From UHGV virus genome UHGV-1639218: a DNA stretch of 22,738 bases; one strand, given 5' to 3'. This DNA is from a virus. The notes under the pieces are model-generated. The model saw nothing but the letters and a program-made list of their open reading frames with translations. It did no database searches and was not told the origin of the DNA. Every line of letters begins with the position of its first letter. The first letter of the stretch is position 1. Position numbers and translations under genes: made by a program. Of the stretch, positions 266 through 1,462 are shown piece after piece.

Positions 266-692
266 TATCCGGCAGGTTCTTGAGCGCTGGGGGGCATGGG
301 CGGTAAATAACTATGAGGATGTTACATGGTCGCCCATTGCTGCCGGATTTAAGGGACTGATCCCCGAAAAAGTAAAATCACGTCCACAGTGCTGTGACGA
401 TGATGCGATGGTGATATGCGGGTGCATAGCCCGCCTTTACCGGAACAATCGCGATCTGCATGACTTGCTGGTTGATTACTACGTGTTGGGGGAGACGTTC
501 ATGGCGCTGGCACGGAAACATGGGTGCTCTGACACCTGTATAGGTAAACGCCTTCACAAAGCGGAGGGGATTGTTGAAGGCATGCTGATGATGCTGGGAG
601 TGAGGCTTGAGATGGATCGGTATGTTGAGCGTGAATTGCCGGGAGGGAGAAGCTCTGTATTTTATCAGCGAAAAAATAGTTTACGATCGTAA
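258..692 (+). CDS. Q: Late-gene antiterminator Q (144 aa, Stx-phage/933W-like type as recalled)
   Basis: Internal ATG at 258 of track ORF 159..692 gives a 144-aa protein starting [18 protein letters not shown]. Position directly after ninH and before terminator-rich noncoding DNA. Cys-rich central region ([12 protein letters not shown]). Confidence 0.75.
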
Positions 693-739
693 AAATCTGC
701 ATATCATGATAAGAGTGGTTACATTGCCACGCAGCCGAA

Positions 740-762
740 CCCGCCGATGCGCGGGTTTTTTT
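740..762 (+). terminator. Intrinsic terminator, tR'-like, about 50 nt after Q
   Basis: Stem CCCGC (740-744) pairs with GCGGG (751-755), 6-nt loop, followed by a 7-T run (756-762). Confidence 0.6.
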
Positions 763-942
763 GTACCCAGAATCCTGTGAGCTATACGGAAAGTACACAG
801 AAAGGAAGGTACGACCGCAATTAATAACAAAATCTTAAAAATCTCATGTGGCACTATTAGTTTTCTAAATATTGTATATTTTAAGTATTGCAGGATAACC
901 CTGTAACGAAGTTTGCGTAACAGCATTTTGCTCTACGAGTTT

Positions 943-972
943 GCCAGCCTCCCCTGGTGGCTGGCTTTTTTT
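943..972 (+). terminator. Second intrinsic terminator in the Q-downstream leader
   Basis: Stem GCCAGCC (943-949) pairs with GGCTGGC (959-965), followed by a 7-T run (966-972). Confidence 0.6.
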
Positions 973-1462
973 GTATCCGTTCAACAGGAATGTTACATAC
1001 CTCACAATTAAGTCAGTTGAATGTTGTCTGCCCGGATGAGAATTTGTTAGAAAAAAACTGCATGGTGAATCCCCCTGAGCGGAGGGGCGACTGGTGACGG
1101 TATAATCTCTGATTATCAAAACGAGAATGACGCGGGTTTAGTGGCACCGGGCTGAACTCACCGGGAGGCACCCGGCACCATGTGCATGATGATACAGATA
1201 CGCGGCTTTAGCCCCTCTCCGGAGGGGCTTTCTTGTGGGCAAAAAAAGCCCGCGCTGGGAGACGCGGGCGGCAAGGAATAAACAACAAAACGTGAAGTAA
1301 TATTTCAGCTGGCGAATAATATCCGACAGTAATCACTCTGCGCAATAGCGCGGCCTTTTTCGTATTGCGGGCTGTTGTCTATCTTCTGCCATTGTCCTGT
1401 AACTTCCGGACTTCAGCCCGCTCCTCATTTTACTCACAATATTATCCAGGCCGGGAGGATTC

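Follow-up and report, generated by a model that had tools for sequence, protein, structure and literature searches.

Positions 1-3424 of the UHGV virus genome UHGV-1639218, a stretch of 22,738 nucleotides (nt) hereafter called the window, very probably represent the late-gene control region of a lambdoid, long-tailed Escherichia coli prophage, with a Q933-type antitermination module as in Shiga toxin (Stx) phages and with the cargo (moron) site right after the terminator tR' left unoccupied. The empty-slot arrangement itself is real, common and already described. A preliminary description of the sequence had recognized a Q antiterminator, late terminators and a NanS-p-type esterase gene in the order known from Stx phages, and our searches bear this out. 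Q matches PF06530 over the complete profile (positions 1-118 of 118; 170 bits against a cut-off of 26, E 2e-50) and is identical to Q of phage 933W at 142 of 144 amino acids (99%). The esterase gene, preceded by a GGAGG Shine-Dalgarno sequence at 1452-1456, is the first protein gene downstream of the late promoter PR'. Its product is 60% identical in amino acid sequence to 933W L0105/NanS-p over the full length, and its relatives carry the annotation SASA family carbohydrate esterase. The gene lies at the nanS-p position, between the PR' region and the holin gene, with DUF1378 and DUF826 genes before the holin gene.

The cargo slot was mapped with blastn and MAFFT against 933W (L004), the Stx1 phage BP-4795 (L003), phi296 (L001) and a non-Stx prophage of E. 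coli O104:H4 (L002). On the left, window positions 119-971 match 933W, BP-4795 and phi296 at 95.4-97.3% identity, and the match stops at the U-run of the second annotated terminator, tR', which thus forms the left edge of the slot for all cargo-bearing phages. Homology returns at about 988 (AATGTTACATACCTCACAATT), from where positions 989/1002-1570 match the DNA downstream of the cargo in these three phages (74-89% identity). Alignment to 933W and other Stx phages, proposed in the preliminary description, therefore places the junctions at 971/972 and at about 988. Where that description had treated the whole interval of 770 base pairs (bp) between Q and the esterase gene as the slot, the point of cargo insertion is narrowed to about 15 nt right after tR'.

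In the cargo-bearing relatives, this point is filled with different DNA. In 933W it holds 1790 bp, comprising a methylase remnant, pT, ileZ-argN-argO, a terminator and stx2AB; in BP-4795 and in phage Stx1a_10314 it holds 1494 bp with stx1AB, and in phi296 a cassette of 473 bp with three tRNA genes and a terminator. Two further comparators (L006 and H96) carry a methylase gene and tRNA genes, and another (L007) carries a DUF7661 gene. The corresponding region of Sakai Sp4 has genes for a CAAX protease, a hypothetical protein and an AraC-family regulator, together with three tRNA genes. The slot is a polymorphic moron site joining two conserved modules, in agreement with Tree et al. 2014 (PMC4104026), who reported a moron site downstream of PR' with convergent small RNAs (sRNAs) and regarded stx as a moron located there. 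We also noted that in Stx2 phages the stretch from tR' to the tRNA genes (positions 2959-3120 of L004 for 933W and 3846-3944 of L001 for phi296) carries the annotation of a DNA methyltransferase fragment. Since L006 has a full methyltransferase gene at the place of this fragment, the Stx2 cargo appears to be layered, with the methylase remnant first, then the tRNAs, and then stx.

We did not find tRNA genes anywhere in the window with ARAGORN, nor any Rfam tRNA match at E<=1 in positions 1-4000. Searches of the whole window with StxA1, StxB1, StxA2 and StxB2 (tblastn) returned only noise (E>=0.17), with no match inside the interval; the same search recovered the toxin genes of Stx1a_10314, used as positive control, at 100%. 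Likewise, when the full cargo cassettes of three comparators were used as blastn queries, no remnant of any of them was revealed. Thus the pair stxA and stxB downstream of Q and PR', by which Stx-converting phages are recognized, is absent, and the Q933-type Q with its PR'/qut/tR' module, also a feature of these phages, is present (249 of 258 nt identical to 933W from PR' to tR'). These results agree with the earlier statements that the interval lacks stx and tRNA genes and that the element is a stx-negative relative of an Stx-phage late region with its Q-dependent site unoccupied. In further support, the whole window aligns to long-tailed Stx1a-converting phages over 84% of its length at 93.7% identity, and Stx1a_10314 is colinear with it. 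The alternative wording of a decayed form is without support, since all late proteins scanned (lysis, terminase, head, portal and tail) match their families over the full length, and the slot has neither remnants nor scars.

The interval was also said to contain only stem-loops and AT-rich DNA. Its GC content is indeed lower than that of the window (0.469 vs 0.543), with a clearly AT-rich part only at 766-940 (0.36). However, it is occupied by PR', an StxS-type RNA, tR', an STnc100-family sRNA, a convergent antisense RNA and the leader of nanS-p (Table 1).

Table 1. Features of the late-gene control region, in window positions.
Feature	Position	Strand	Basis
ninH	68..265	+	PF06322 Phage_NinH, E 2.4e-30; placed as in 933W, BP-4795 and the O104:H4 prophage
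Q antiterminator gene, 933W type, 144 aa	258..692	+	PF06530; identity to 933W Q
Late promoter PR' (TTTACG-16-TATCAT), overlapping the Q stop codon	680..707	+	Promoter scan
StxS-type RNA, 258 nt, from PR' to tR'	714..971	+	Identity to 933W; length match
First hairpin with U7, 23 nt past the putative start, in the qut/pause region	737..765	+	Terminator scan; fold
tR' intrinsic terminator (stem 943-965, U7 966-972)	943..972	+	Fold; scan; 933W annotation (L004 2930-2958)
Unoccupied cargo (moron) slot, 15 nt, GTATCCGTTCAACAG	~973..987		Homology breaks off sharply at 971/972 and resumes at ~988
STnc100-family sRNA with its own terminator (1210-1229 and U-rich tail)	1031..1240	+	Rfam RF02076
Convergent antisense RNA, counterpart of Sakai Sp4 EcOnc08/EcOnc21	1241..~1510	-	Terminator scan; fold; Sp4 identity
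Hairpin and CCUUUUUCG in the nanS-p leader	1338..1362	+	Terminator scan; conserved in 6 of 6 aligned phages/prophages
nanS-p-type sialate O-acetylesterase gene, 653 aa	1463..3424	+	Pfam DUF1737, SASA and DUF6645, all above cut-offs

The PR' block is identical in sequence to the annotated pR' of 933W (L004 2667-2694), and transcription would start near 714. In E. coli Sakai, PR' is constitutive and gives rise to StxS (StxS-L), an RNA of 258 nt that is processed by RNase E, bound by Hfq and mapped by Term-seq (Sy et al. 2020, PMC7547250). The distance from the putative start at 714 to the U-run of tR' at 971 is 258 nt, equal to the Term-seq length of StxS in Sakai. This region is 96.5% identical to 933W and differs from the O104:H4 prophage at a single position (257 of 258 nt identical). 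The part corresponding to the stable 3' fragment spans about 887-971, with 83 of its 3' 85 nt identical to 933W, and an RNase E motif (GU/AUU) is found at 885-889. By analogy with the Sakai homologues, expression, RNase E processing and Hfq binding are predicted for the RNA of the window.

The first hairpin after PR' has a strong GC stem, is kept in all comparators and is called a "possible terminator" in the 933W annotation (L004 2727-2749). The mapped StxS RNA passes through this hairpin to reach its 258 nt. The hairpin may be part of the region where Q loads and the polymerase pauses. A weak Rfam match to Qrr at 872-974 (23 bits against a gathering threshold of 50) was discarded as a chance match driven by the terminator, the sequence being the 3' end of StxS; weak matches to Ysr49, anti-hemB and OmrA-B were dismissed on the same grounds.

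To the right of the slot, the STnc100-family sRNA matches RF02076 over the whole model (positions 1-206 of 206) with 160.2 bits against a gathering threshold of 47 (E 3e-37). Since the folding energy of the whole sRNA was not distinguishable from that of shuffled sequences (z = -1.3), the assignment rests on the covariance-model score. The family occurs at the equivalent position in all six comparators (933W, BP-4795, the O104:H4 prophage, phi296, L005 and L006). The sRNA is a homologue of EcOnc05 and EcOnc27 of Sakai, and the Hfq peak of EcOnc05 in Sp4 projects to about 1111-1219 of the window. Both Sakai RNAs were reported as Hfq-bound, EcOnc27 in Sp5 with about 235/247 nt and EcOnc05 in Sp4 with about 222 nt (Tree et al. 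2014, PMC4104026). A further report places STnc100 75 nt downstream of stx2 (PMC12370729), and the PasD/STnc100 family adjoins esterase genes (bioRxiv 10.64898/2026.05.13.724894).

Within the sRNA, a single-stranded stretch just 5' of its terminator (1172-1208) exists in at least three unrelated sequence versions while the structured core is conserved: one in the window and L005, one in the O104:H4 prophage, phi296 and Sp4, and one in 933W and BP-4795. This variation looks like seed-region swapping. The point at which similarity to the closest E. coli prophages breaks off (position 1152) also falls within this sRNA.

On the opposite strand, a terminator stem (1269..1248, followed by U7) marks the 3' end of the convergent antisense RNA at about 1241, abutting the 3' end of the STnc100-type sRNA. 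Positions 1241-1462 are identical to Sakai Sp4 at 219 of 222 nt. In Sp4, this DNA gives rise to EcOnc08 and EcOnc21, seen as peaks of Hfq cross-linking and analysis of cDNA (Hfq-CRAC) and as a northern band of about 271 nt (Tree et al. 2014, PMC4104026); the two minus-strand peaks project to 1243-1315 and 1321-1406 of the window. If it is about 271 nt long as in Sakai Sp4, the antisense RNA would overlap the start codon of nanS-p.

AsxR (RF02703) and AgvB (RF02702) were considered for this RNA and rejected, with no match at the gathering threshold and none at E<=10 in 1200-1470. In control searches, the same covariance models detected AsxR in 933W and L005, and AgvB in BP-4795, at the corresponding position. 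The expected AsxR or AgvB is missing because a different allele, already reported as EcOnc08/21, is in place. This allele is carried by the window, the O104:H4 prophage, phi296 and L006, and we found it in 992 of 5426 complete E. coli genomes. It has no Rfam family and is unannotated in all the matches listed.

Taken with the homologous phages, these features suggest how the region would operate. In the lysogen, PR' would fire constitutively and transcription would stop at tR', yielding an StxS-type RNA of 258 nt that would be trimmed by RNase E to a stable, Hfq-binding 3' fragment. From the DNA that separates nanS-p from the slot, the STnc100-family sRNA would be expressed on one strand and the antisense RNA on the other. 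Upon induction, Q would load on RNA polymerase at PR'/qut and allow it to read past tR' and the hairpins into nanS-p and the lysis, head and tail genes. Because positions 973-987 hold nothing, induction would yield esterase, lysis and virions but no toxin.

Several points weigh against this picture of a working late region with an empty cargo site. For this element, the transcription start, the RNA ends and the Q-dependent read-through are all taken over from homologues. The 5' end of the antisense RNA (about 1510) is likewise projected from the reported length of about 271 nt. The sialate O-acetylesterase activity of the 653-amino-acid protein is an assumption, the protein being only 60% identical to the characterised NanS-p of 933W. 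Finally, the window covers only part of the prophage, without immunity, replication and integration genes, and inducibility is presumed.

The unoccupied joint is not peculiar to the window. A probe of 66 nt, able to match only the unoccupied joint, was found in 88 of the 5426 complete E. coli genomes at >=96.9% identity, among them the O104:H4 outbreak lineage, an O157:H7 strain, a uropathogenic E. coli (UPEC) strain, and isolates from pig, cattle and food. In addition, a 23-mer across the slot occurs in 26 IMG/VR prophage contigs, which pair the joint with Q alleles that are 82-97% identical at the nucleotide level and with differing esterase alleles. In a collection of phages, none of the 291 records matching a junction probe had the empty joint. 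Seven of these hold only tRNAs; of the other 284, the 33 single-piece records listed match up to probe position 95 or 101, equivalent to window position 974 or 980. The allele is strain-level accessory DNA, and neither a 51-mer nor a 23-mer across the junction had a match among 185,579 species-representative genomes.

The empty joint may be ancestral or the product of a clean loss. The first of these, in which the empty allele is the backbone into which tRNA and stx cassettes were inserted later, once or repeatedly (a "precursor"), is a reasonable possibility, if somewhat short of probable. Different cargos share their left and right edges, as they would if added to a single joint that already existed. 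The empty joint is also found widely, in mosaic backgrounds, and stx is seen as a moron lying downstream of PR' (PMC4104026). Homologous recombination in the conserved flanks, in either direction, would however lead to shared edges just as well; there is no target-site duplication or other signature of insertion, and the lack of the empty joint in the phage records speaks against an ancestral state as well.

It appears unlikely that a tRNA and/or stx cassette was recently and precisely deleted from a true Stx phage (a "lost Shiga toxin"), which would correspond to the decayed form of the preliminary description. Such an origin would account for the Stx-phage DNA in both flanks (95-97% identity on the left, 74-89% on the right) and for Stx1a_10314, in which a shared backbone has stx1AB at the slot. 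Moreover, an alignment with two gaps is possible between the 15-nt linker plus AATG and the initial 32 nt of the cargo in 933W and phi296, and the sequence CAG..AATG at both ends of the phi296 cargo could mediate a deletion by microhomology. Yet the end repeats are not above chance, with shuffled sequences scoring at least as high in 164 of 500 cases for phi296, 461 of 500 for 933W and, marginally, 28 of 500 for BP-4795. No cargo remnant was found either. Furthermore, the junction is identical in the 88 genomes, which are of unrelated serotypes and sources, and the varied Q and esterase alleles of the 26 IMG/VR contigs point to an old, widely recombined allele. It is this wide, mosaic distribution of the joint that disfavours a recent one-off deletion. 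Direct repeats or target-site duplications at the cargo edges (best 7-9 nt) were considered as evidence for insertion or deletion, and were dropped after the shuffle test.

It is very improbable that the interval instead carries protein cargo on the minus strand, in the form of open reading frames (ORFs) 681-926 (81 aa) and 865-1119 (84 aa): both match PHROG families of unassigned function (phrog_17306, E 4.5e-50, and phrog_28474, E 3.5e-47, respectively), and the former appears in the annotation of BP-4795 as ORF39 and in that of phi296 as a hypothetical protein, but these PHROGs are built from automatic ORF calls on the same conserved DNA, RefSeq PGAP calls no coding sequence between Q and esterase in O104:H4, ORF 681-926 is antisense to the experimentally mapped StxS RNA, and ORF 865-1119, which spans the slot, is not a conserved gene since the slot cargo interrupts it in every cargo-bearing relative.

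The unoccupied cargo site may also bear on exchange between phages. Among the closest E. coli prophages (92-97% identity), the match to the window begins only at 991, 1001 or 1152, and the two that we examined have other Q modules; from this, recombination breakpoints coincide with tR' and the conserved core of STnc100. We tentatively suggest that the conserved sRNA modules at either side of the slot, StxS/tR' with its >=95% identity to Stx phages and, to the right, the core of STnc100, could serve as ready-made homology arms, which would make an intact empty-slot prophage a natural acceptor of cargo. If so, a double crossover with a co-resident Stx phage could create another Stx phage, new in its tail and its host range, and the reverse exchange could strip the toxin from a phage. 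The breakpoints of the relatives at tR' (971) and inside the STnc100 core (1001/1152), and the coexistence of the empty joint with an Stx2a phage in O104:H4, are compatible with this suggestion.

The combination of a q933-type Q, an StxS-type RNA and a nanS-p gene is insufficient to indicate a toxin phage, which is relevant to the typing of Shiga toxin-producing E. coli (STEC) by polymerase chain reaction (PCR) or other markers. Moreover, the seemingly empty intergenic DNA of lambdoid late regions encodes Hfq-dependent sRNAs, able to act on the host without the toxin. The practical value of our observations is limited, and none of them is new; earlier publications cover the moron site and its convergent sRNAs, StxS, the location of STnc100 downstream of stx, and the occurrence of multiple nanS-p genes in prophages of the non-Stx kind.

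Beyond the control region, the esterase gene is followed by genes for DUF1378, DUF826, a P21-type holin, DUF1327, a lysozyme and Rz, and then by those for the terminase small and large subunits, a head protease/capsid fusion, the portal, the major tail protein and a tape measure protein of 1080 aa. Since lysis, terminase, head, portal and tail genes including the tape measure gene are present, the window corresponds to the late half of a lambdoid prophage with a long tail. The esterase gene has a mosaic structure (1570-2860). Its first ~110 nt are 97% like the O104:H4 allele; beyond them, it is about 70% identical to the genes of O104:H4, 933W, BP-4795 and phi296, and about 97% identical to those of other E. 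coli prophages (e.g., isolate AF10). Between the lysozyme and Rz genes we found a direct repeat of 118 nt (5496-5613 and 5761-5878, 93% identical, 265 bp apart), by which the C-terminal part of a small membrane-protein ORF (phrog_1115, function unassigned in PHROG) is present twice. Two ORFs that overlap by ATGA, 12223-13587 (454 aa) and 13584-14483 (299 aa), both match the 859-position portal family phrog_2271, covering its positions 1-451 and 670-859, respectively. A related Stx2a phage record lists "portal protein (x2)", and the split may be the normal gene structure and not a frameshift.

Compared with known phages, the window resembles the Stx1a phage Stx1a_10314 (LC744187) over most of its length: the two are colinear, with 95.4% identity from Q to tR' and 95.7-95.8% in the head and tail genes, packaging included. 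They differ by the stx1AB cargo of Stx1a_10314, by a divergent esterase region (74% at the nucleotide level) and by the lysis region (83.6%). The convergent sRNA of the Stx1a phages and BP-4795, which share the backbone, is AgvB, in contrast to the EcOnc08/21 type of the window. With 933W/Sakai Sp5 (Stx2a), the window shares the nearly identical Q, PR', qut, both hairpins and StxS, followed by an STnc100-type sRNA and nanS-p. Unlike the window, 933W has its long cargo, AsxR as convergent sRNA and an esterase of 60% amino acid identity, and it belongs to the short-tailed Sepvirinae, whereas the window encodes a long tail with a tape measure protein.

The stx-negative phages that carry only tRNAs (vB_EcoP_phi296/phi315/phi367, Lahn2, TL-2011a and PPwrbA_EH2201) have, like the window, a Q933-type left flank (97.3%), a right flank of 88.9% identity with the EcOnc08/21-type allele, and no stx, but their slot is filled by the cassette of three tRNA genes and a terminator. 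Sakai Sp4 shares the STnc100-type EcOnc05 on the plus strand and EcOnc08/21 on the minus strand, directly upstream of an esterase gene; it differs by its Q and by the protein genes and tRNAs in the slot region. The same empty junction is found in the non-Stx prophage of E. coli O104:H4 2011C-3493 (NC_018658.1, about 2,546,278-2,549,388), which has ninH-Q, an interval of 765 bp and a SASA esterase gene, is colinear with positions 1-1570 of the window at 96.9% identity, and has an STnc100 match in the equivalent place. RefSeq PGAP annotates neither coding sequences nor tRNAs between its Q and esterase genes. It is distinguished from the window by another esterase allele from about 1570 onwards (about 70% at the nucleotide level) and by the variable 3' part of the STnc100-type sRNA, and it shares its host genome with an Stx2a phage.
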